From: an uncultured Lachnospiraceae bacterium
Lineage (GTDB): Bacteria > Bacillota > Clostridia > Lachnospirales > Lachnospiraceae
NCBI GenBank assembly: GCA_905235275.1
Contig: CAJOLA010000002.1
Location: 2,033-66,032, forward strand
Length of the DNA stretch: 64,000 bases
Direction: 5' to 3'
Shown: positions 27,960 through 38,870 of the stretch, piece by piece
How the letters are laid out: every line of letters starts with the position of its first letter
Numbering within the stretch: the stretch's first letter is position 1
Notes under the pieces: model-generated
What the model saw: the letters and a program-made list of their open reading frames with translations, nothing else
Databases searched by the model: none
Told to the model about the DNA's origin: nothing
Made by a program: the position numbers and the translations under genes

Positions 27960-30080
27960 ATGAATATTACCTTCGGAAAACTTCTGAAAGCTGATTTAAG
28001 AAAAAGATTATGGATGATAATACTTATTTTTGCGGTAAGTATTGTTGCATATCCGATTTTTTATCAGATTTTCCTTTCGTCCGTTTCTGAAGGCAATACC
28101 GATTATATAGGGACTATCGTAACCAAAGACAATGCTACGGAATTAGTCCTCGGGTGGCGTAACAGAAGTATTTACTATATTGTTACGGGTGCGGCTATTT
28201 TGGCAGCCGTTACGGGTTTTGCATATCTTGATTTAGAAGACCCCGAAATGAAATACCAGGGCAGAAATGTCGATAAAGATACATGGTTTAAGGTTCGATG
28301 GCTCGGAGGTTACATTGCGGGAATTGTTCCTGTGCTTATCGGCGCCCTGATTGCAATATTTGCGATAGCTCCGATTAATGTTGCTTTTTCAGCCCCTAAT
28401 ATCGGAATGGCTTTTTCCACGCTCGGTATCGTAATAGTCGGTTTTACGGCCATATATGCAGCTTGTGTACTGGCGATGGTCCTTACGGGCAAGATAATAA
28501 CGGGGCTCCTTATGTGCGGGCTTTTCCTGGGATATGCTCCCATGTGCGGTGCGCTTATCGGAGGATTTAAGGACGGATTCTTTTCAAGAATATATATCCC
28601 GTACGAGCACATGTCCGATTCACCTTTTATGTATTTTTCTCCCGTTACGGCATTCAGAATCGTGGCGGAAAGACCGTCAAGCGTCTGGGGATGGATTTCA
28701 CTCGGTGTATTTATTGCGGCAGGAACGGCCCTTTCGTTTAAGCTTGTAAAGCTTCGTACGCAGGATACTCCCGGTTATGCCATGCTTTATGACAGGATGC
28801 GCGGCATCGTAAAGGTAATCTGGGGAATACCTGTTGCCTTGGTTGCCGGAATGATATTTACGGTATTTTCCGATAATAAAGCCACATTCATGTTTATACT
28901 GGGAACCTATATAGGTGCATTCGTCGTCAATATTGCCATTCAGTATCTGTTTGATTACGACATTGAGACCAACAAAAGGCATTTTATATCAGGCGGAGTA
29001 ATTTTTGGCGGAGTGACCGTTGTTATCCTGATTCTGTTTTGCGATCCGTTCGGCATTAACAGAAACATACCCGCAAAAGAGAATGTAAAAAGCATGTCGG
29101 TTGCAAGCTCCGACACCTCGGGACAGCTCAGACTTCTCGGAGGCTTCATGGAGAATGAAGACAGCATAAATGCAAGAGATACCGACTGGCTTCTTACGAA
29201 TACGTTTATCGAAGATTTCGATAAGATATATGATGTTGCAAGTGAAGGTACCAAGTATAAGAACGCGAACGGAAGAGCTTATACGGAAGTTTATGTAGGC
29301 TTTGAGTTAAATAACGGACGTAAGCTCTACAGAAAATATGATATCGATCTTACGGTTTCACAGGAGACCATCGATAACCTTTCAGAGCTTGAGACCTACA
29401 GGGAGAGATTCTATCCTACGGCATACATTGAGAATAACGCATATAAGCAGGCGCAGCTTGGCGGATGGAATTTTGCGGATCTTATGGATGCAAAGGATAA
29501 GAAAAGAGTGGATTTATCCGAAGAACAGGTTAAGAATCTTACGAAGGCCATAAAGGAAGACAGTCTGAAGTTCAGCAGTAAAAAGCTTAAAGAAAGCATG
29601 CCGACGGGAGATTTGATTTTATACTACGAAAAATCCGGTTTTGACGAAATATACGTATATCCGGAATATACCAATACGATTAAAGTTCTTGAAAGCCTCG
29701 GTATGGCAGGCGCACTGAAGTTTAATCCTGCAGAGCTTCCGAAAAACATTCAGTCTGCCACATTAAAGGTTGCGGAGACCTCCAATGCGCTGCAGACCTC
29801 TGAGGATACCGGAGAAGAGAGTGACATTGACGTAGAGAATTTAAATAATGTTAACGGAATGCTTTACGGTACGTATCGTATGGAAGCAAAGGACTACGAC
29901 TTCGGAAAGAACGAGATTGAAAGCCTCCTTGAATGCCTTGCTCCGGCCCGCGCCGGTGTAATGGAGTCGATGGACAGATCATTTACCCTTACTTTAAAGA
30001 GAGCGGAAAACGATCAGGACTTCTATGAAGCGGTAGTAACGGATGAAAAAGGATTAAATAAACTTCTGGAAGGAAAATAA
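27960..30080 (+). CDS. hypothetical polytopic membrane protein: about 9 TM helices (ABC-2-permease-like) plus a roughly 330-aa C-terminal soluble domain
   Basis: AAAGGAGG RBS. The hydrophobic N-terminal 370 aa starts FGKLLKADLRKRLWMIILIF, as in ABC-2 permeases. No ATPase gene is adjacent. Confidence 0.5.
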   Translation: MNITFGKLLKADLRKRLWMIILIFAVSIVAYPIFYQIFLSSVSEGNTDYIGTIVTKDNATELVLGWRNRSIYYIVTGAAILAAVTGFAYLDLEDPEMKYQGRNVDKDTWFKVRWLGGYIAGIVPVLIGALIAIFAIAPINVAFSAPNIGMAFSTLGIVIVGFTAIYAACVLAMVLTGKIITGLLMCGLFLGYAPMCGALIGGFKDGFFSRIYIPYEHMSDSPFMYFSPVTAFRIVAERPSSVWGWISLGVFIAAGTALSFKLVKLRTQDTPGYAMLYDRMRGIVKVIWGIPVALVAGMIFTVFSDNKATFMFILGTYIGAFVVNIAIQYLFDYDIETNKRHFISGGVIFGGVTVVILILFCDPFGINRNIPAKENVKSMSVASSDTSGQLRLLGGFMENEDSINARDTDWLLTNTFIEDFDKIYDVASEGTKYKNANGRAYTEVYVGFELNNGRKLYRKYDIDLTVSQETIDNLSELETYRERFYPTAYIENNAYKQAQLGGWNFADLMDAKDKKRVDLSEEQVKNLTKAIKEDSLKFSSKKLKESMPTGDLILYYEKSGFDEIYVYPEYTNTIKVLESLGMAGALKFNPAELPKNIQSATLKVAETSNALQTSEDTGEESDIDVENLNNVNGMLYGTYRMEAKDYDFGKNEIESLLECLAPARAGVMESMDRSFTLTLKRAENDQDFYEAVVTDEKGLNKLLEGK

Positions 30081-30253: not shown

Positions 30254-31048
30254 ATGGCTTATACTATTTTTAAAATAGGGTCTTTTTCCTTGCATGGCTA
30301 TGGATTAATGATTGGAATAGGAATAATTGCAGCCGTAATAATTGCTACCCTGAGAGCCAAGGGAGCAGGCTTAAATGCCGACAAAGTCCTGGGTATGATT
30401 TTATGGAGTACCATAGTCGGATTTGGCGGCGGAAAACTTTTATATATAATCGTGGAGCATGACAGACTGGCCGATGATCCGTGGGGCGTTTTGGGACCGT
30501 CGGGATTTGTCGTATACGGCGGTTTGATATGTGGCATATCATTCAGTGTTCTATATACTAAGCTTACAAAGATTTCTTTTGCAAGATATATCGATCTTCT
30601 GATTCCGTCTCTTGCGATAGGCCAGGGGTTCGGAAGACTGGGGTGTCTTATGGCAGGATGCTGCTACGGTCGCCCCGCAGGTCCCGGGGAATGGGGTATA
30701 GTATTTCCTCCGGGGTGTGACGCGCCTTCAGGCGTGGCTCTGGTGCCGACGCAGGTATATATGGCAATCGGAGATTTTGCGATTGCGGCGATTCTTTTAA
30801 TAATAGATTACGCTACACGCGGTAAGAACAGAACGCCGGGAACTCTCATAGTAGGATATCTTCTTATGTACAGTGTCGGAAGATTTTTGATTGAGTTCTT
30901 AAGAAATGACGACAGAGGAAGCGTGGGAGCACTTTCCACATCTCAATTTATAGCAATCTTTATGGTGGCGGCCGCCATAGTCATATGGATTGTTCAAAAA
31001 ACAAGATACAAAAACGGGAAAAATGAAAATGAAAATATTGCAACCTGA
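30254..31048 (+). CDS. lgt: prolipoprotein diacylglyceryl transferase
   Basis: Lgt-family motifs are present: GRLGCLMAGCCYG, VPTQVYMAIGD and YSVGRFLIEFLRND. Confidence 0.8.
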   Translation: MAYTIFKIGSFSLHGYGLMIGIGIIAAVIIATLRAKGAGLNADKVLGMILWSTIVGFGGGKLLYIIVEHDRLADDPWGVLGPSGFVVYGGLICGISFSVLYTKLTKISFARYIDLLIPSLAIGQGFGRLGCLMAGCCYGRPAGPGEWGIVFPPGCDAPSGVALVPTQVYMAIGDFAIAAILLIIDYATRGKNRTPGTLIVGYLLMYSVGRFLIEFLRNDDRGSVGALSTSQFIAIFMVAAAIVIWIVQKTRYKNGKNENENIAT

Positions 31049-32102
31049 TTATTATAAAGATTTTAAATGCATCGCCTCTGCCTGTGAGGATACCTGTTGT
31101 GCTGGCTGGGAGGTTGATGTTGATGATGAGAAGTACCATTTTTATAAGACCGTTAAAGGGGCACTCGGCAAACGCTTAAAGGAAGTCATGGTACCCAAGA
31201 AAAAGGGTGAGGGCTGTTCCTTTGAGCTTAGTGAGGACAAGAGGTGTCCTTTTTTGGATAAAGAAAATCTTTGCGACATCATAAAGGAGCTTGGAGAAGA
31301 GGCTATTTGCGAGACCTGCACCGATTATCCGAGATTCATAAGAGACTACGGTCAGACAAGAGAGATAGGTCTTGTTCCTTCATGCTTTACCGCGGCTCAG
31401 CTCATGGTAAATAAAAAAAAGCTCTCAGTCATCGTTTCAAAACAGGATGATGATCTGAGGCTTGAGTTAAATGATATTGATGCCGAATTGTTTTTTGAGT
31501 TAAAGGATCTGCGTTCAAGAATATTTATGTGTCTTGCCGATAAGAAACGGCCGGTCGAAGATAAGCTGTCGGATATTCTGGACATAGCGCAGGAGTATGA
31601 AGATGACTGCGGTAAGTCAAAAGACCCGACAAGCGCATACAGGGGCCATAAAGATCCCGTTAAGATGTTTTTTAAGCCTTTTGACGGCATGGAAACCGTA
31701 AACCCGAAATGGGATGATTATGTTGATGATACACATGAATTCGAGATAACGGATGATGATTACAGGGAAGTCTGTAAAAAGATTCCGCAGCTTTCAAGAG
31801 CGCTCGAAGAGCTTGCGTTTTATTATTTTTACAGATATATCATGGAAGCCGTATATGATGCCAAAATATTAACGGCGGCCAAGACCGCCGTTGTAGCATT
31901 TATCTGTTGCAGACATATATGCACCATGGAATTTATAAAGAACGGGAAGCTTTCCTGTGATGATATAGCCGAAATTTTTCATGTGTATTCAAGGCATCTT
32001 GAACATTCAGAGGTTAACTGGAACAGGTTCTTCGATGAGTATGAGACAAATACCATCTATTCCAAAAAGACCTTAAAAAAGATTCTTAAAGGGCAGTATT
32101 GA
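31023..32102 (+). CDS. FliB-family Cys-rich protein (flagellin lysine-N-methylase-like)
   Basis: The N-terminal motif YYKDFKCIASACEDTCCAGWEVDVD and a second CPFL..NLC cluster are recalled as the FliB/YkgJ-type signature. No flagellar genes are nearby. Confidence 0.45.
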   Translation: MKMKILQPDYYKDFKCIASACEDTCCAGWEVDVDDEKYHFYKTVKGALGKRLKEVMVPKKKGEGCSFELSEDKRCPFLDKENLCDIIKELGEEAICETCTDYPRFIRDYGQTREIGLVPSCFTAAQLMVNKKKLSVIVSKQDDDLRLELNDIDAELFFELKDLRSRIFMCLADKKRPVEDKLSDILDIAQEYEDDCGKSKDPTSAYRGHKDPVKMFFKPFDGMETVNPKWDDYVDDTHEFEITDDDYREVCKKIPQLSRALEELAFYYFYRYIMEAVYDAKILTAAKTAVVAFICCRHICTMEFIKNGKLSCDDIAEIFHVYSRHLEHSEVNWNRFFDEYETNTIYSKKTLKKILKGQY

Positions 32103-32103
32103 T

Positions 32104-33666
32104 TTAGCGTCTCTTGCTTTCGTCATTAAGGGTTCTCGGATCGTCTTTTAAGTTCGGGCTGTCCATCTGACCGTTAGGTCTGCCGCCCTGCATGCCGCCG
32201 GGCATTCCCCCCATCATGCCCGTGCCGTAGATAATATCATTCATAACAATATCAGTGCTTGAGGTACCTGCCGTAACGGTATAGGTGCCTCCTTTTTTAA
32301 TTTCCGGTGCGCTTATGACAACGCTGTCGTAAGCCTTGGGTGCCGTATAAGAGCAAAGTGTATTTCCCGATTCGTCTTTTATCTCAATTGTTGTTCCTGC
32401 CGACTGATTTTGTGTTGCGGTAAGTATGGAGCCTTGTGTTGATTCGGATCCCATATTCTGAGCCATTCCGCTCATGCCCGTTGCCACGAGTATTCCCCCT
32501 GAGATTGAAGCCTTTCCGTCGTAATCAAGAACGGAATCGCCGTTGTTGGTTGATCCTGACGCATAAGTCTCACCGCCCGTGATTATTATGTCTCCGTTGG
32601 AGTCAAGAGCGTCTCCCCCTGCATTAAGATAAACTTTTCCGTCAGAAATCCTTAAAGTGTTCATGGCATTTGTTGCGTCATCACTTGCAGTGACATCGGA
32701 TGATCCGCCCGCGATATTTACGATATCTGCCTCATATCCCTCATAGCAGTTCGTAATTTTTATGTTGCCGCCTGCAATGAGAATTTCGGGACCTGCGTGT
32801 ATCGCATCGTCATAGGCATCGATTGTAACATTGCCGTCCTGAATATATACGAAGCCTTTCGTCGCATCCTCATCATTTTCGGAATGGATGGCATCCTGTG
32901 CGGCTTTTATGTTGATGTCGCCTCCGGCAATGCGCACACTGTCTTTGCCCTGTATGCCGGAATCGGCTGAATCCACGTTAAGAGTTCCCCCCGTAATCTT
33001 AACGTTATCCTTTGATACAATCCCATGCCCGGATTTGGATGTGACGTTTAAGGTTCCCTTGCCGTTTAAAGTTATCGTATCTTTGGCAAATATTGCCCCG
33101 TCAACGTTGCTGTCGTCCGTCTGTGTAAAAGTGCCGCCGTTTGAAACGGTATTGGTCGTTCCTTCTTTGGTTGTGATAAATACCTTGTCGGCATTCTTTA
33201 CGTAGATTCCCGCGTAAGAGTTTGAATTAATGCTTGCGTTATCAAGGACGAGCTGAATTTTGTCCGTATCCGCGCCTTCAACCTTTACGGTGCCGTTTGC
33301 AAGCGTGCCCGTAAGTATATACACGCCTTCTTTTGAAATGGTAATCGTATCACCGGAAACGCTTACGCCGTCCGCATTTGACGGGCTGTTAAGGTTTACG
33401 GTAACGGCACCTGCCTCATCGAAAGTCTGAACGAGGTCCCTGTCGGTGAACATGTTTGCAATGTCGATGGTTGTATTTTCAACATTGGGAACGGATGCGG
33501 AAGCACTTTGCCCTGAGGTTGAAGCGGCAGTTTCTTCCGTGCTCTCCGTAACTGTCACACTTTCCGTGACGGTTGTCTCCTGCGGGGCAGAGCCGAAGCA
33601 CCCCGCAAGAAGTACGGATGCTGCAATGGCAGGTGTAACGGTTGCAAATAATAATTTCTTCTTCAT
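32104..33666 (-). CDS. secreted lipoprotein with Cthe_2159-like beta-helix (carbohydrate-binding domain-containing protein)
   Basis: Lipobox LLAGC, then a Ser/Thr-rich linker. Long G/N/T/D-rich segments repeat irregularly (GDTITISKEGVYILTG..., ITGGTLNVDSADSGIQGKDSVRIAGGDINI), as in parallel beta-helices. The tail is Gly/Met/Pro-rich. The ATG at 33666 lies 7 nt after AAGGAG. Confidence 0.65.
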   Translation of the reverse strand: MKKKLLFATVTPAIAASVLLAGCFGSAPQETTVTESVTVTESTEETAASTSGQSASASVPNVENTTIDIANMFTDRDLVQTFDEAGAVTVNLNSPSNADGVSVSGDTITISKEGVYILTGTLANGTVKVEGADTDKIQLVLDNASINSNSYAGIYVKNADKVFITTKEGTTNTVSNGGTFTQTDDSNVDGAIFAKDTITLNGKGTLNVTSKSGHGIVSKDNVKITGGTLNVDSADSGIQGKDSVRIAGGDINIKAAQDAIHSENDEDATKGFVYIQDGNVTIDAYDDAIHAGPEILIAGGNIKITNCYEGYEADIVNIAGGSSDVTASDDATNAMNTLRISDGKVYLNAGGDALDSNGDIIITGGETYASGSTNNGDSVLDYDGKASISGGILVATGMSGMAQNMGSESTQGSILTATQNQSAGTTIEIKDESGNTLCSYTAPKAYDSVVISAPEIKKGGTYTVTAGTSSTDIVMNDIIYGTGMMGGMPGGMQGGRPNGQMDSPNLKDDPRTLNDESKRR

Positions 33667-33678
33667 GTTCATTCTCCT

Positions 33679-34359
33679 TTATAATTCCGCTTTTGCAGTC
33701 TGTGTTTTATTGATTGATATTTCAAGGTTGCCGTTTCGTTCTCTGATCTCATCTATCATCGCTTTTTCATTTGTTTCATTCTTTAAAGTGACGTCATATG
33801 AGAGCTTGAAAAGGCTGCCCATGTTGGTTGTTTTTACATGTGTAAGCTCATGGCTTGAAGTATTTTTTTCAAATATGTCATCGAATACGTGAGTGTAGTC
33901 GAGCGTTTCGGGTATTGTTATCGTAAGTGTTTTGTGAAGTCCGGATTTTCCTGCGTTAAAGTTAACATTGGAAAATGCGATAAATGCGATGCTGACGATT
34001 ACCGCAAAGATTGCCGCAAACAACAGGTATCCCATCCCCGCGATAAGGCCCGCGCCCATCGCAAGGAATATGGCGCCGATTTCCTTGGCCGACCCTTGAG
34101 CCGATCTGAATCGTACGAGTGAAAATGCACCTGCGACCGCAACACCGGCACCGATGTTTCCGTTTACAAGCATTATTACAACGCATACGACGGCCGGCAG
34201 CAGTGCGAGCGTCGCCATAAAGCTTTTTGATGAATCGGAATGTCTCGAATACATAAAAGTAATGAAAATTCCAATTGCAAGAGATACTCCCAGACATGCC
34301 ATAAATGCACCTATGGAAATGGAAGCAAGTGAGCCGAAAATGCTGTTAAATATTGCCAA
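33679..34359 (-). CDS. DUF4956 domain membrane protein
   Basis: 4-5 TM helices with the AFSLVRFRSA motif, then a roughly 90-aa soluble C-terminal domain. TTG start at 34359 after GGGGGAG. It overlaps the upstream VTC gene by 14 nt. Confidence 0.65.
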   Translation of the reverse strand: MAIFNSIFGSLASISIGAFMACLGVSLAIGIFITFMYSRHSDSSKSFMATLALLPAVVCVVIMLVNGNIGAGVAVAGAFSLVRFRSAQGSAKEIGAIFLAMGAGLIAGMGYLLFAAIFAVIVSIAFIAFSNVNFNAGKSGLHKTLTITIPETLDYTHVFDDIFEKNTSSHELTHVKTTNMGSLFKLSYDVTLKNETNEKAMIDEIRERNGNLEISINKTQTAKAEL

Positions 34360-35098
34360 TTTTAATCTCCCCCTTCTTTAACATATCTTTATATGCGGCA
34401 CCGTATTTTGAAAACGATGCTTTAAATATCTGTTTGTCCGATAAGAATCTGCTGAGCCACAATGGCATTCCTTCGATAAGCTTTACTTCCATTATTGAAT
34501 GCCCCGGACTTATGAGAAGCTCTCCGTCCGGCTCATGCTCAAGCGTAAGGTCGGAAGTCCTGTATCTGATATTGGTATCAAAGGTTACTCTGAAATCCTT
34601 ATTGTCTTTACCGTAGAAGGCTTCTCTGTCATACGAAAGAAAAACTACCGGATGAAGTGTTTTATAAATATCCCTGAAGTAAGTAAGCTCTTTGGCGATT
34701 TGGACATCCGTGGGCTTAGCGTCCGGTCTGTCGAATTCATCATCCGGAAGAGGACTGCCCGCCAGGAAATCAAGAGCATCCTTTTGAGGGATGAATATTC
34801 TTCTTTTAAATACAGTTTTTTTGCATTTCTTTTTTAATTCGACAAATACCGGATCGGAAAGTGAAGAAGTGTTATAGCTTCTTACCCTTAACTTTTCTTT
34901 ATAGACGGGTTTTTCGATTGAACGTCTTGCAAGAAGAAAAGAATCGGTATCGTAATAAATGTTTCTGACGGTTGCATCACCGTGCGGATCCTTTACCATC
35001 AGGTCTTTATTTTTAAAAAGATTAAGAAGCTCTTCTTTTTCTTTGTCATCAAGAAGGTATTTTATTTCCACTCTTGAGAATATGTTTTTGTTTGCCAT
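34346..35098 (-). CDS. VTC domain protein (polyphosphate polymerase domain-containing, triphosphate-tunnel fold)
   Basis: 250 aa. The N-terminal RVEIKYLL is an ExK tunnel motif. YYDTDSF, KLRVRSY, VFVELKKK and EVKL strands resemble the CYTH/VTC beta-barrel pattern. Confidence 0.65.
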   Translation of the reverse strand: MANKNIFSRVEIKYLLDDKEKEELLNLFKNKDLMVKDPHGDATVRNIYYDTDSFLLARRSIEKPVYKEKLRVRSYNTSSLSDPVFVELKKKCKKTVFKRRIFIPQKDALDFLAGSPLPDDEFDRPDAKPTDVQIAKELTYFRDIYKTLHPVVFLSYDREAFYGKDNKDFRVTFDTNIRYRTSDLTLEHEPDGELLISPGHSIMEVKLIEGMPLWLSRFLSDKQIFKASFSKYGAAYKDMLKKGEIKIGNI

Positions 35099-35254
35099 TT
35101 TTTGTACCCCCTCTTTCTTTCTGAGGCAAGTGTAGAGGACATAACTTAAATGAAGCTTAAAAATTAGGATTTTTTTTTGATATAATATTTTAAAGTTGAA
35201 TTAAGGTTTCCACGGTAGTGTGTTCATAAGAATAAAGGAAAGAAAGGAAAAGAT

Positions 35255-35926
35255 ATGAGACTTCTTTTTGCGGAAGATGAACATTCATTATCAAGAGCCG
35301 TCTGTGCGGTTCTTAAAAAAAATAATTATGAGGTCGATCCCGTCTATAACGGAAAGGATGCACTTGATTATCTGGAAGCCGGAGAGTACGACGGCGCAAT
35401 ACTTGATATCATGATGCCTGAGATGGACGGAATCACGGTCCTTAAAAAAATAAGAGAAGCCGGAAACAACATTCCCGTAATCATGCTTACGGCAAAAGCC
35501 GAGGTTGATGATAAGGTGTACGGTCTTGATTCCGGAGCAAATGATTATCTTGCAAAACCGTTCGATATGAAAGAACTTCTCGCGCGAATAAGAAGTATCC
35601 TTCGCGTTAATACTGCGCAGACTTCCTCGAAGCTTAAGTTTTCGGATATAGAACTCGATCAGACGACATTCGAGCTTTCATCGGGGGCGGAATCCTTTAA
35701 GCTTACCAATAAGGAATATCAGATGATGGAGATGTTCATATCCAACCCTCACAGAATATTTTCCGCTGAAAATTTTCTTGAAAAGATATGGGGATATGAG
35801 TCCGATGCGGATATCAATGTAGTCTGGGTTTATATTTCGTATCTCAGGAAAAAACTGACGGCACTTAAATCAAAGGTTGTCATCAAAGCGACAAGAAACG
35901 TCGGATACTCACTTGAGGAGTCTTAA
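35255..35926 (+). CDS. OmpR-family response regulator
   Basis: Receiver domain (LLFAEDE, DGAILDIMMPEMDG, LTAK) plus a winged-helix C-terminus (VWVYISYLRKKL). Confidence 0.92.
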   Translation: MRLLFAEDEHSLSRAVCAVLKKNNYEVDPVYNGKDALDYLEAGEYDGAILDIMMPEMDGITVLKKIREAGNNIPVIMLTAKAEVDDKVYGLDSGANDYLAKPFDMKELLARIRSILRVNTAQTSSKLKFSDIELDQTTFELSSGAESFKLTNKEYQMMEMFISNPHRIFSAENFLEKIWGYESDADINVVWVYISYLRKKLTALKSKVVIKATRNVGYSLEES

Positions 35927-35980
35927 GGCTTAAAGGGGAAAGCCCCTGCTGTATAAATTTACGGATTTCGGTAAAGAATA

Positions 35981-37351
35981 ATGATAAAAAAATTACGAAT
36001 AAAACTTATAGCGGTTGCGATGATATCCATGTTTGTGGTCCTTGGAACCATTGTGTCCGCAATAAATATTATCAACTACAACAAAACGGTCAATGATGCC
36101 GATGCGATACTGACCGTCTTAAAGGAAAATGACGGTAAATTCCCAAGGGACATGAGACCTGACATGGAAGCACAGGATTTCGCACAGTCCGATTCATCAC
36201 AGAGTGAGTCCACGGGGCAGCAGGAGAGCGGTGCGACACAGGAGGCGACTCCTCCGACCTTTCCGAAAGAAAACGAAAGCTTCACACGTGAGGGGCGAGG
36301 TCACGGACCGGACGGTCACATGCTTCTTAATTCTCCGGAGACGGCTTACGAGTCAAGGTTTTTTAGCGTAAGCCTTGACAGTTCCGGAAACGTAACGGGG
36401 ACGGATGTCGGTCAGATTGCAGCCATCGATTCGGAGTCGGCAAAGGAGATGGCGGCATACGTTTACGCATCAGGAAGACAGAAAGGATTTTACGGCAATT
36501 ACAGATATGTGCGCTCAGAGAGTGATTCCGGAGTACGGATAATTTTTCTTGATTGCATGAGGAGTCTTTCGAGCTTCAGGAATACTCTTTTAATGAGTAT
36601 AGTCGTATCGCTTATCGGACTGGGTGCCGTATTTGTTCTTGTAATTATTTTCTCAAGACGCATAGTAAAGCCTGTTTCCGAGAGCTACGAAAAGCAAAAA
36701 GAGTTTATTACGAATGCGGGGCATGAGCTTAAGACACCGCTTAGCATCATTAATGCCGATGCCGAGGTTCTTGAGATGGAAAGCGGTGAGAGCGAATGGC
36801 TTGATGACATTAAGAATCAGACATCAAGGCTTGCGGCTTTAACCAACGACCTGATATTTCTTGCGAAGATGGAAGAGGGCGGCGGAGAGCTTGTCCTGAT
36901 AGAATTTCCTTTTTCCGATATGGTAAAGGAAGCGGTTAAGTCATTTGCCGCACCCGTTAAGGCGGCAGGAAAAACTCTTGCAACCGACATTGAAGATATG
37001 ATAAGTATTAAGGGCGACGAAAAAAGTCTGTATAAGCTTGTAAACATTCTTCTTGATAACGCGAATAAATACTCGCCCGAAGGCGGATACATTCATGTCG
37101 GCTTAAGGCGGCAAAAGGGTAGAACCATTCTTGATGTAACCAATACAACCGATTATGACCTGGACAGGGATAATATCGACGGACTTTTTGACAGATTTTA
37201 CAGAGCCGATAAATCACGCAATTCGGGGAAGGGCGGATACGGCATAGGCTTGTCGGTTGCGAAAGCGATAACCGAAAAACACAAAGGAAAAATAAGAGCT
37301 TACGCAAAGGATGCGCGCTGTATGGTGATTGAAGTATCATTTGCGGGATGA
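35981..37351 (+). CDS. sensor histidine kinase (two TM helices, about 170-aa extracytoplasmic loop)
   Basis: H-box NAGHELKTPLS, N box LLDNANKYSP, and G boxes DRFYRAD and GYGIGLS. Confidence 0.92.
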   Translation: MIKKLRIKLIAVAMISMFVVLGTIVSAINIINYNKTVNDADAILTVLKENDGKFPRDMRPDMEAQDFAQSDSSQSESTGQQESGATQEATPPTFPKENESFTREGRGHGPDGHMLLNSPETAYESRFFSVSLDSSGNVTGTDVGQIAAIDSESAKEMAAYVYASGRQKGFYGNYRYVRSESDSGVRIIFLDCMRSLSSFRNTLLMSIVVSLIGLGAVFVLVIIFSRRIVKPVSESYEKQKEFITNAGHELKTPLSIINADAEVLEMESGESEWLDDIKNQTSRLAALTNDLIFLAKMEEGGGELVLIEFPFSDMVKEAVKSFAAPVKAAGKTLATDIEDMISIKGDEKSLYKLVNILLDNANKYSPEGGYIHVGLRRQKGRTILDVTNTTDYDLDRDNIDGLFDRFYRADKSRNSGKGGYGIGLSVAKAITEKHKGKIRAYAKDARCMVIEVSFAG

Positions 37352-37362
37352 TTGGAGATAAA

Positions 37363-37860
37363 ATGATTTACAGAAGAAACGTAAGTACACGCAGAGGCAT
37401 GAAGGTATCTTTTTCGACAACATGGGAATATAAATCTGAATTCATCACGGATGCGTGTTATGACATCATAAAGAATGATTTTGGGTCAAGTCTTGTCAGG
37501 GCGTGCGTGATAATGGAGCAGGGCGGAAAGAAGCAGGAGATTTTGGATGACGTTAAAGTCTCGGAAACCGTCGACCCTGCTGTTTTTGAAAAGCTGGCTA
37601 AAGGCTGCGATGAGGCGATTATTGCAGGATACAGTAAAATAATGGACTGTCCGATTGAATTTCATTTTAGTGCGGGGACTAACGTGGTAGAGCTTACGTG
37701 TCTTAAAATGGGCTTTTTTAACAAAAAAGGCAAGCATGCATTTGACGTATACATGGACAGTATCGAGATAAATGCATATTGTCGTGACGTCAGAAGAAAG
37801 ACGTCTTTAAAATATGAAAATAATGACAAAAAAATTCTTGACAAGGGTCAACCGCTATAA
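37363..37860 (+). CDS. hypothetical protein
   Basis: ORF with a GGAG RBS 5 nt before the ATG at 37363. An alternative start at 37348 overlaps the kinase stop. I recognise no family. Its 3' end contains the tRNA operon promoter. Confidence 0.4.
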   Translation: MIYRRNVSTRRGMKVSFSTTWEYKSEFITDACYDIIKNDFGSSLVRACVIMEQGGKKQEILDDVKVSETVDPAVFEKLAKGCDEAIIAGYSKIMDCPIEFHFSAGTNVVELTCLKMGFFNKKGKHAFDVYMDSIEINAYCRDVRRKTSLKYENNDKKILDKGQPL

Positions 37861-37866
37861 TATAAT
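37838..37866 (+). promoter_or_regulatory. consensus sigma-A promoter of the tRNA operon (TTGACA-17-TATAAT)
   Basis: TTGACA at 37838-37843, an exact 17-nt spacer and TATAAT at 37861-37866. It lies 56 nt upstream of tRNA-Pro. Confidence 0.8.
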
Positions 37867-37921
37867 GCTACTTGCGTTGCGAAGAGAGAGCTTTAAAACG
37901 CAAGTGAATTTTAGGAGCTGA

Positions 37922-37996
<75 letters not shown>

Positions 37997-38021
37997 TATT
38001 TCAGCCAATATATTATTTTTT

Positions 38022-38092
38022 GCGGGTGTAGTTCAATGGTAGAACACCAGCCTTCCAAGCTGGATACGTGGGTTCGATTCCCATCACCCGCT
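38022..38092 (+). tRNA. tRNA-Gly (anticodon TCC)
   Basis: Acceptor GCGGGTG/CACCCGC, anticodon arm CCAGC-CTTCCAA-GCTGG, T-arm GTGGG-TTCGATT-CCCAT. No encoded CCA. Confidence 0.9.
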
Positions 38093-38096
38093 TTGT

Positions 38097-38170
<74 letters not shown>

Positions 38171-38177
38171 CTAATAT

Positions 38178-38252
38178 GGTGGGTATAGCACAGCTGGTCA
38201 GCGCGTCTGATTGTGGTTCAGAAGGTCGAGGGTTCGAATCCCTCTATCCACC
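38178..38252 (+). tRNA. tRNA-His (anticodon GTG, with encoded G-1)
   Basis: An extra 5' G pairs with discriminator C. Acceptor GTGGGTA/TATCCAC, anticodon arm TCTGA-TTGTGGT-TCAGA. Confidence 0.88.
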
Positions 38253-38264
38253 CTGGTCGGATAA

Positions 38265-38336
38265 TGGGCTATCGCCAAGCGGTAAGGCACAGGGTTTTGA
38301 TCCCTGCATTCGCCGGTTCGAATCCGGCTAGCCCAG
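38265..38336 (+). tRNA. tRNA-Gln (anticodon TTG)
   Basis: Acceptor TGGGCTA/TAGCCCA, anticodon arm CAGGG-TTTTGAT-CCCTG, T-arm GCCGG-TTCGAAT-CCGGC. Confidence 0.9.
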
Positions 38337-38357
38337 TTATATCGGCAAATAAATGAA

Positions 38358-38762
38358 GCAGAAATTTTGGTCTTTAACCAAGTGACGTTTCGACCAACGG
38401 GAGAAACTCACAAAGCTTTGCGAAGCAGAAATTTTGGTCTTTGACCAAAGGATGTTTCGACCGAAGGGAGAAACTCACAAAGCTTTGCGAAGTAGAAATT
38501 TTGGTCTTTGACCAAAGGATGTTTCGACCGAAGGGAGAAACTCCAAATTTCTACGCAGTAGAAATTTTGCGAAGCCAAAGGATGTTTCGACCGCAGGGAG
38601 AAACTCCAAATTTCTGCGAAGCAGAAATTTTGGCGTAGCCAAGTGATGTTTCGACCGAAGGGAGAAACTCACAAAGCTTTGCGTAGCAAAGATTTTGGCG
38701 AAGCCAAAGGATGTTTCGACCGAAGGGAGAAACTCCAAATTTTTGCGCAGCAAAAATTTTGG
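38358..38762 (+). repeat. tandem array of six 63-67-nt structured repeats plus a seventh partial unit that abuts tRNA-Lys
   Basis: Unit starts are at 38358, 38425, 38492, 38558, 38621, 38686 and 38750. The conserved core is GATGTTTCGACCGAAGGGAGAAACTC, flanked by hairpin-forming arms that covary. Confidence 0.9.
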
Positions 38763-38833
38763 GCTCGTAGCTCAGTCGGTAGAGCACTAGACTTTTAATC
38801 TAGGTGTCCCGGGTTCGAACCCCGGCGGGCTCA
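38761..38833 (+). tRNA. tRNA-Lys (anticodon TTT)
   Basis: Acceptor GGGCTCG/CGGGCTC (two G-T pairs), anticodon arm CTAGA-CTTTTAA-TCTAG, T-arm CCGGG-TTCGAAC-CCCGG. Confidence 0.88.
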
Positions 38834-38870
38834 CAAAAAAAGCAGGCATTCATATGAATGCCTGTTTTTT
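38834..38870. terminator. bidirectional intrinsic terminator (tRNA operon / hydrolase gene)
   Basis: An A7 run, the perfect palindrome CAGGCATTCATATGAATGCCTG, then a T6 run. Confidence 0.85.

Follow-up and report, generated by a model that had tools for sequence, protein, structure and literature searches.

Polyphosphate polymerases are treated as VTC enzymes in eukaryotes and as PPK enzymes in prokaryotes in the reviews and papers that we searched. The question raised by the locus described here is whether a bacterium may hold an operon that synthesizes polyphosphate in the eukaryotic manner and delivers it to the outside of the cell. The locus lies in a 64-kb stretch of DNA from an uncultured Lachnospiraceae bacterium (contig CAJOLA010000002.1, positions 2,033 to 66,032; hereafter the window), in which three tightly packed genes on the minus strand, encoding a VTC-domain protein, a DUF4956 membrane protein and a Cthe_2159-type beta-helix lipoprotein, diverge from a pair of genes for an OmpR-type response regulator and a histidine kinase. 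An earlier interpretation derived from the letters alone (the sequence-only reading) had proposed that this operon is a split analogue of the VTC synthase-translocase, and in the analysis reported below the identity of the enzyme, the linkage of the genes and the regulatory link stood, while the translocase and lipoprotein roles did not yet. Polyphosphate synthesis and export by the window operon is plausible on the basis of these sequence and structure comparisons. The operon represents a split VTC-type system that lacks an SPX domain and has a non-homologous membrane partner. The five genes in question are as follows.

34346-35098, minus strand: VTC-domain protein of 250 residues, isoelectric point (pI) 9.0, predicted to be soluble (Pfam VTC, AlphaFold model, Foldseek)
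33679-34359, minus strand: DUF4956 membrane protein of 226 residues with a TTG start (Pfam DUF4956)
32104-33666, minus strand: Cthe_2159-type parallel beta-helix lipoprotein of 520 residues counted from the second ATG (Pfam Cthe_2159, PDB match)
35255-35926, plus strand: OmpR/PhoB-type response regulator of 223 residues (Pfam Response_reg and Trans_reg_C)
35981-37351, plus strand: sensor histidine kinase of 456 residues (Pfam HisKA and HATPase_c)

The gene coordinates, the 14-nt overlap between the DUF4956 and VTC genes, the start of the lipoprotein gene (33666) 13 nt past the DUF4956 stop and the 156-nt intergenic region between the VTC gene and the regulator (35099-35254) were all reproduced from the list of open reading frames (ORFs). 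The assignment of the three operon proteins to the VTC, DUF4956 and Cthe_2159 families, made earlier from the letters alone, likewise held in Pfam profile searches, and NCBIfam had no model for any of the three.

The first gene encodes a Vtc4-type tunnel enzyme

The Pfam VTC profile (PF09359) matched the first protein with E=2.5e-42 and 145.5 bits against a gathering cut-off of 23, spanning profile positions 2-233 of 235, and Vtc4, Vtc3 and Vtc2 were the sole matches in a sequence search of the PDB. When the AlphaFold model (pLDDT 91.8) was submitted to Foldseek, ranks 1-13 were all taken by VTC tunnel domains (Vtc4, Vtc3 and Vtc2, E 1e-14 to 1.5e-10), with the Vtc4 structures 3g3r/3g3q as the best matches (3g3r_B, E=1.1e-14, TM-score 0.73), whereas other tunnel enzymes (YgiF, CyaB-type cyclases and the thiamine triphosphatase ThTPase) reached TM-scores of at most 0.52. 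The N-terminal ExK strand, from which a tunnel enzyme of the CYTH/VTC kind had been recognized earlier, can therefore be attributed to a protein that is specifically Vtc4-like and not a generic CYTH/TTM member. The protein consists of the VTC domain alone, without an SPX domain and without a membrane segment, while the catalytic subunit of the yeast complex carries both SPX and a three-helix membrane domain.

Closer examination was directed at the residues that line the tunnel. According to Liu et al. (bioRxiv 10.1101/2023.01.27.525886), the triphosphate in Vtc4 is held by K200, R264, R266, K281, Y359, R361, S457 and K458, and Mn2+ is held by E426; mutating the eight triphosphate-coordinating residues lowers polyphosphate significantly, and K458 is the single difference of Vtc4 from its inactive paralogues, being replaced by Ile in Vtc2 and by Leu in Vtc3. 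E426 belongs to the triple mutant R264A/R266A/E426N that is used for VTC inactivation. The HMMER alignment to Vtc4 placed K13, R71, R73, K89, Y156 and R158 of the window protein at K200, R264, R266, K281, Y359 and R361, respectively. As the C-terminal third lies beyond this alignment, and PDB searches with that third, either alone or as a 20-sequence profile, returned chance matches only, fungal Vtc4 fragments were retrieved and aligned by hhalign, which matched E204, S230 and K231 to E426, S457 and K458; the Vtc4 numbering of these C-terminal residues was verified by counting forward from R361 as far as LEVK and FSKF. The conservation of the basic and acidic tunnel residues, on which the sequence-only reading had staked its case, was thus found to be complete: all nine are present in the window protein and invariant across 36 bacterial homologues (49-77% identical to the window protein, mean column identity 58%). 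Further tunnel residues are kept as well (R9 for R196, K98 for K294 and K206 for K428). The window enzyme most likely polymerizes phosphate from ATP into polyphosphate in the cytoplasm.

A different chemistry has to be weighed at this point, in which the protein might act as a hydrolase or as a tunnel enzyme of some other kind (tripolyphosphatase, NTPase or cyclase), in an operon devoted to envelope or phosphate signalling. Most members of the CYTH/TTM superfamily are hydrolytic, and the next-best fold matches listed above come from it; the bacterial VTC proteins have an invariant glutamate (E11) where Vtc4 has Thr198, so that the first strand reads R-x-E-x-K, between the hydrolytic ExExK and the R-x-T-x-K of Vtc4. 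On the other hand, the protein shares with Vtc4 the E-x-K form of the second motif and has retained every residue required to make polyphosphate, among them the lysine by which Vtc4 differs from the inactive Vtc2 and Vtc3, and its fold is closer to VTC than to the hydrolases. We consider a non-polymerase unlikely.

The family to which the enzyme belongs is large. At least 7,835 homologues were found, under the NCBI name "polyphosphate polymerase domain-containing protein", and an exhaustive profile search with clustering at 50% identity returned 9,442 clusters at E<=1e-3, 5,249 at E<=1e-10, a count that takes in eukaryotic members, and 1,376 at E<=1e-30. One protein of 351 residues (P0470) appeared to combine a weak response-regulator receiver domain (23 bits, under the cut-off) and a full VTC domain in a single chain, which hints that some VTC enzymes may be controlled directly by phosphorylation. 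The proposed product of the window enzyme, polyphosphate from a nucleoside triphosphate, is also that of PPK1 and PPK2, but these are of an unrelated fold and family, make intracellular polyphosphate and are not known to have dedicated membrane or surface partners.

The enzyme and DUF4956 form a conserved core with exchangeable partners

Gene neighbourhoods were scanned with one genome per GTDB species, and the best 80 of at least 594 loci (44-51% identical), from Lachnospiraceae, Oscillospiraceae, Ruminococcaceae, Acutalibacteraceae and others, were examined. The DUF4956 gene came after the VTC gene in 80/80 loci, usually with an 8-nt overlap, and a Cthe_2159-type gene was next in 69 of the 72 that extended far enough to show it; these two counts rule out a chance adjacency of the genes. 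Upstream sequence was available for 62 loci, and in 46 of these an OmpR-type regulator and a kinase adjoined the operon, being divergent in 25, co-directional in 19 and located downstream in 2. The co-occurrence that the sequence-only reading had expected beyond this one genome was therefore observed for the pair, the trio and the two-component system. The five-gene module was also present in Lachnoclostridium phytofermentans and in Paenibacillus cellulosilyticus (Bacilli). More distant copies showed the following gene orders.

Acetoanaerobium: regulator, kinase, VTC, DUF4956, PLD-like protein
Enterococcus faecalis plasmid: VTC, DUF4956, regulator, kinase, CotH
Nonomuraea: VTC, DUF4956, CotH
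Pseudobutyrivibrio plasmid pNP95: CotH, VTC, DUF4956, within an exopolysaccharide cluster

Since these copies keep VTC-DUF4956 and swap the partner, the invariant core is the enzyme together with DUF4956, and the secreted or surface partner and the two-component system are frequent additions to it. The variable third gene mostly encodes a predicted secreted or surface protein, either a Cthe_2159-type lipoprotein or a CotH kinase.

Several of the loci contained additional genes. In Acetoanaerobium noterae (L089, 7417-8973) a PLD-superfamily protein (PLDc_N and two PLDc_2 domains) comes after VTC-DUF4956 and is followed on the opposite strand by a gene for a P-type cation ATPase. On plasmid pNP95 of Pseudobutyrivibrio xylanivorans (L087, 5038-8177) CotH-VTC-DUF4956 is located among glycosyltransferases, acyltransferases and pyruvyl transferases. 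Four loci resembling Lachnoclostridium phytofermentans (L003-L006, 13551-14519) have a gene of the NAGPA family (phosphodiester glycosidase) after the beta-helix gene and a 52-residue ORF, possibly a further link to phosphorylated glycans.

Related clusters with a CotH kinase

The system was already present in annotation and in the literature, as the family is named by NCBI and the core pair is in print. Among the accessory genes of pel loci in Gram-positive bacteria, Whitfield 2020 (PMC7112168) lists cotH, DUF4956, DUF4832 and a gene for a polyphosphate polymerase, with CotH-VTC-DUF4956 beside pel loci in streptococci, clostridia and bifidobacteria, and Lepp et al. 2010 (PMC2879425) describe VTC-domain and 'tubulin/FtsZ' genes together with CotH in NELoc-2 of Clostridium perfringens. 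All three genes of the cluster SIR_1592-1594 were deleted in Streptococcus intermedius in a 2025 mBio study that left the mechanism open (PMC12345266): Pel levels and aggregation were altered when the DUF4956-type gene or the gene for the secreted CotH was lost, whereas deletion of the VTC-domain gene gave no aggregation phenotype, so the two proteins need not form one obligate machine. In our literature search we came across no enzymological study of a bacterial VTC protein, nor any account of the Cthe_2159-type operon together with its two-component system. The earlier statement that no function had been shown experimentally for bacterial VTC/DUF4956 pairs was thus essentially right, the S. 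intermedius CotH-type cluster being the sole genetics found.

These clusters suggest another role for the core pair, namely a general cassette for the modification of surface polymers, in which VTC-DUF4956 would provide an extracellular phosphoryl or polyphosphate donor and the CotH kinase or beta-helix partner would phosphorylate or cross-link a surface glycan. The placement of the CotH-type set inside the pNP95 exopolysaccharide cluster and beside pel loci, the Pel and aggregation changes of the S. intermedius DUF4956-type and CotH deletions, and the description of Cthe_2159 by Pfam as a carbohydrate-binding domain all point in this direction. The window operon shares with the CotH-type clusters the VTC and DUF4956 core and a secreted or surface partner, but differs from them in its Cthe_2159-type lipoprotein, in its dedicated two-component system and in the lack of a pel or glycan-synthesis context, its neighbours being fliB, lgt and a tRNA cluster; moreover, the identity between its VTC protein and the pNP95 copy is only 27%. 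Cthe_2159 proteins have no known catalytic motif, and the deletion of the S. intermedius VTC gene had no phenotype. For the window operon this general role appears improbable.

The membrane partner and the surface partner

The second protein matched Pfam DUF4956 (PF16316) with E=1.5e-16 and 61 bits against a gathering cut-off of 30.6, as did all 35 aligned homologues. The membrane partner is more conserved than the enzyme (mean column identity 75% compared to 58%) and contains the invariant stretch VNGNxxxGVAVxGAFSLxRFRSxxGxAxEI...GLxxGMG. Five transmembrane helices are predicted (16-40, 45-64, 69-86, 91-108 and 112-131), followed by a C-terminal domain for which the model secondary structure is beta-alpha-beta-beta-alpha-beta, resembling ACT/PII domains; by the positive-inside rule, the loop with RFRS...K and the C-terminal domain would both be on the cytoplasmic side. 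The channel of the yeast complex is built of five subunits with three helices each and has basic residues on the first transmembrane helix. Foldseek searches with the DUF4956 model, which is of moderate confidence (pLDDT 68), returned no match to Vtc1 or VTC membrane domains and only weak ACT/PII-like matches to the tail, none with E<0.009, and DUF202 was absent among the families listed for DUF4956 homologues at E up to 10. In view of this lack of resemblance DUF4956, if it is a conduit, would be an analogue of the VTC membrane domains and not a homologue. The sequence-only reading had cast this protein as the translocase by conjecture, and neither the Foldseek comparison with VTC chains nor the architecture, five helices with an ACT-like tail as opposed to three-helix subunits, lends support to that role. 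Fusion proteins, considered as evidence for a VTC-DUF4956 complex, were not seen among the top 150 representatives.

A relationship to MgtC was also considered. The Pfam MgtC profile matched 7 of the 35 DUF4956 homologues below threshold (best E=0.027), and the hhalign comparison of the DUF4956 profile with E. coli YhiD, a member of the MgtC family, was not significant (probability 0.2%, E=0.37); homology to MgtC is therefore not claimed. The predicted overall architecture and the Gly/Ala-rich helices of DUF4956 appear similar to those of MgtC/SapB, but the two are separate Pfam families and MgtC is not known to be encoded beside a VTC gene. The streptococcal counterpart of DUF4956 has been described as an MgtC transmembrane domain joined to an ACT domain, and MgtC, the closest described analogue, is a regulator and not a channel (PMC12345266).

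The third protein matched Pfam Cthe_2159 (PF14262) with E=2.6e-74 and 250 bits, and over residues 95-321 it matched the Cthe_2159 structure from Clostridium thermocellum (PDB 4peu/4phb, E=4.9e-31). Its beta-helix domain is homologous to that of Cthe_2159, from which it differs by a lipid-anchor signal, a Ser/Thr linker, extra C-terminal turns, a Gly/Met/Pro tail and its fixed place in a VTC-DUF4956 operon. The lipobox is LLAGC, the signal peptide ending in MKKKLLFATVTPAIAASVLLAG before the cysteine in agreement with the pattern [LVI][ASTVI][GAS]C, and a lipobox was found in 55 of 66 homologues. Between the linker and the tail lies a strongly acidic body. With a pI of 4.2 and a net charge of -36 for the mature protein (homologue median -58), direct binding of polyphosphate is unlikely, which weakens the earlier idea that this lipoprotein binds or processes the polyanion; it may possibly bind through bridging Ca2+ or Mg2+, or bind a glycan instead. 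Two proteins of 677 and 571 residues (P0433 and P0450) join a truncated VTC domain directly to Cthe_2159 repeats, with DUF4956 missing. Deletions or assembly chimeras are their probable origin, and genuine fusions are improbable, given that the membrane should separate the VTC part from the Cthe_2159 part.

The properties of both partners bear on the possibility that polyphosphate is made by the operon but kept in the cytoplasm, with DUF4956 as an anchor and/or an MgtC-like regulator with an ACT domain, and with the lipoprotein in a separate, co-regulated role of binding cations or glycans at the surface. Such an arrangement would fit the several helices and ACT-like tail of DUF4956, the MgtC and ACT description of its S. 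intermedius counterpart, the weak MgtC profile hits, the lack of similarity to the VTC channel and the poor suitability of an acidic lipoprotein as a polyphosphate binder. It is opposed by the non-significant comparison with YhiD, by a review stating that free cytosolic polyphosphate from a VTC-type enzyme is toxic in yeast, and by the prevalence of secreted or surface proteins as third partner, since a product that stays inside the cell is hard to explain if the partners face outward. We regard retention in the cytoplasm as possible, if rather unlikely.

A two-component system and a conserved repeat upstream of the operon

The regulator encoded across the intergenic region matched Response_reg (E=2.6e-30) and Trans_reg_C (E=5.3e-21), while HisKA and HATPase_c were found in the kinase, in which HAMP and PAS were not detected by Pfam. 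Two hydrophobic membrane segments of the kinase flank an extracytoplasmic loop of about 165 residues with a pI of 4.6 and a net charge of -10. No named two-component system reached the NCBIfam cut-offs (RppA 210 compared to 250 bits, RppB 151 compared to 400), and identification of the pair as PhoBR was rejected, the PhoB and PhoR scores also being below cut-off. Inspection of the intergenic region identified three elements.

35145-35161, minus strand: direct repeat TTTAAG-CTTCA-TTTAAG with an 11-bp period, a candidate regulator site at the -35 position of the VTC operon
35129-35134, minus strand: TACACT, a putative -10 element for the VTC operon, separated from the repeat by 10 nt and followed by a Shine-Dalgarno sequence
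35157-35186, plus strand: promoter-like TTAAAA-18-TATAAT with an extended -10 TG (10 of 12 matches), facing the regulator and kinase genes

An extended -10 element (TGATATAAT) had been reported in this region before, with no strand given; it is present at 35178-35186 but lies on the plus strand, where it would serve the regulator and kinase genes and not the VTC operon. The TTTAAG repeat differs from pho boxes of the usual kind, which also speaks against PhoBR.

Within the 64-kb window the direct repeat has no other match, and at up to one mismatch it was found once against 0.86 expected, which is not significant on its own, so the argument rests on conservation across species. The commonest 7-mers upstream of orthologous operons, apart from the ribosome-binding site, were TTTAAGT, TTAAGTT and TTAAGGT, and the aligned orthologous upstream regions contained two to four repeat units with a period of 11 bp and, at a constant distance behind them, a -10 element (TACACT, TATACT or TATAAT at the matching offset). 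A strict promoter pattern (TTWARK-n5-TWWRRK, then 8-14 nt, then TAnnnT) was present in 28 of 77 orthologous upstream regions, as compared to a mean of 0.17 and a maximum of 2 in shuffled sequences, and it was more common beside a two-component system of the window's class (17/32) than elsewhere (10/43). This arrangement of repeat and -10 element agrees with that of promoters which OmpR/PhoB-type regulators activate, and the adjacent regulator would bind there. The control of the operon by the neighbouring sensor kinase, as suggested by the sequence-only reading, gains support from the adjacency in 46 of 62 loci and from the conserved operator-like repeat.

Gene boundaries and flanking genes

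The TTG start of the DUF4956 gene is located 7 nt after the Shine-Dalgarno sequence GGGGGAG, and it is supported by homologues that align along 100% of the query; an identical protein of 226 residues is present in the database. For the lipoprotein gene the longest ORF begins at 33672, while the gene callers, on an identical metagenome contig, start from the second ATG at 33666, for which AGGAGA stands at a suitable distance, giving 520 residues.

Downstream of the kinase one further ORF was noted.

37348-37860, plus strand: ORF of 170 residues with a 4-nt overlap with the kinase stop codon (ORF list)

This ORF has no family in Pfam, NCBIfam or PADLOC and was seen only on a same-species contig (L001) among 86 loci, which makes its membership in the system doubtful. 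An anti-phage defence system was rejected, since PADLOC gave no match for any of the proteins.

On the other side of the operon, lgt, which encodes a prolipoprotein diacylglyceryl transferase (assigned by Pfam LGT on the identical contig), and fliB, for a flagellin lysine-N-methylase (NF038110, E=1e-69), lie at 30254-32102 on the plus strand and converge on the lipoprotein gene. A single base separates the stop codon of fliB (32102) from that of the lipoprotein gene (32104), and no terminator was predicted there. Upstream of lgt a protein of 706 residues with many membrane segments and without a Pfam family is encoded on the plus strand (27960-30080). The kinase and the 170-residue ORF are followed by a tRNA cluster on the plus strand (37838-38834; Pro, Gly, Arg, His, Gln and Lys), ahead of which a perfect TTGACA-17-TATAAT promoter is found at 37838-37866, and between tRNA-Gln and tRNA-Lys there is a tandem repeat (38355-38762) with a unit of about 65-67 nt, 6.2 copies and 86% matches.

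A proposed route for the product and its implications

Taken from gene to gene, our proposal is that the cytoplasmic Vtc4-type enzyme is held at the membrane by DUF4956, to which it is translationally coupled, and that an oligomer of DUF4956, with the basic loop LVRFRS...K and the ACT-like domain on its cytoplasmic side, may conduct the nascent chain outward. A membrane potential that is positive outside would favour export of a polyanion and has the same polarity as that of the yeast vacuole lumen. On the outer face of the membrane the acidic beta-helix lipoprotein would act indirectly, via Ca2+/Mg2+ bridges or a surface glycan, and the kinase, with its acidic extracytoplasmic loop, would together with the regulator activate transcription of the operon from the TTTAAG-n5-TTTAAG repeat, which would replace a -35 element. 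The whole chain, from a Vtc4-type polymerase at the membrane with DUF4956 under two-component control to a product passed outward, is put forward tentatively and falls somewhat short of an even chance. Family, fold, catalytic residues, synteny and the conservation of the promoter motif are what the comparisons establish, whereas polymerase activity, a complex of VTC with DUF4956, export, the part played by the lipoprotein, binding of the regulator and the signal are inferences.

In several respects the proposed system parallels the yeast VTC complex. The catalytic tunnel domains are homologous, with all nine catalytic residues including K458 in common, a membrane protein is linked genetically to the enzyme, and the exterior of a bacterium is topologically equal to the vacuole lumen. 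The differences are these: a Vtc1-type subunit is part of the yeast complex, but none is encoded in the window operon, whose membrane partner is the unrelated five-helix DUF4956; regulation is by inositol pyrophosphates in yeast and would be via the two-component system in the window; and Thr198 of Vtc4 is Glu in the window enzyme.

A number of observations weigh against the proposal. These are the invariant E11 of the bacterial enzymes, the moderate confidence of the DUF4956 model together with the missing match to VTC membrane domains, the role of MgtC as a regulator, the strong negative charge of the lipoprotein, the 16 of 62 loci without a neighbouring two-component system and the S. intermedius VTC-gene deletion without an aggregation phenotype. 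The least secure parts of the proposal are the function of DUF4956 as a channel and that of the acidic lipoprotein.

The window cluster is a promising lead and not a discovery, of moderate to high interest to those who study polyphosphate or gut microbes. Among Lachnospiraceae and Oscillospiraceae of the gut the system is common, and the operon is small, comprising three genes and two regulators with a recognizable candidate operator. As a broader view, which we consider speculative and on balance unlikely in its entirety, Bacillota including gut Clostridia would possess a second, eukaryote-type route to polyphosphate, in which a Vtc4-like polymerase would be docked on DUF4956, an unrelated membrane protein that would have evolved independently to thread the polymer out, under an envelope-sensing two-component switch, yielding regulated extracellular or surface polyphosphate that would either be associated with acidic, cation-binding beta-helix lipoproteins or serve as the phosphoryl donor for secreted CotH kinases. 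The VTC-DUF4956 pair may also explain why secreted CotH kinases are encoded beside these same genes. If active, a VTC enzyme with its full catalytic set, present across thousands of bacterial protein clusters, would represent a third bacterial route to polyphosphate, and its wiring to membrane and surface proteins could explain how bacterial polyphosphate comes to be placed outside the cell.

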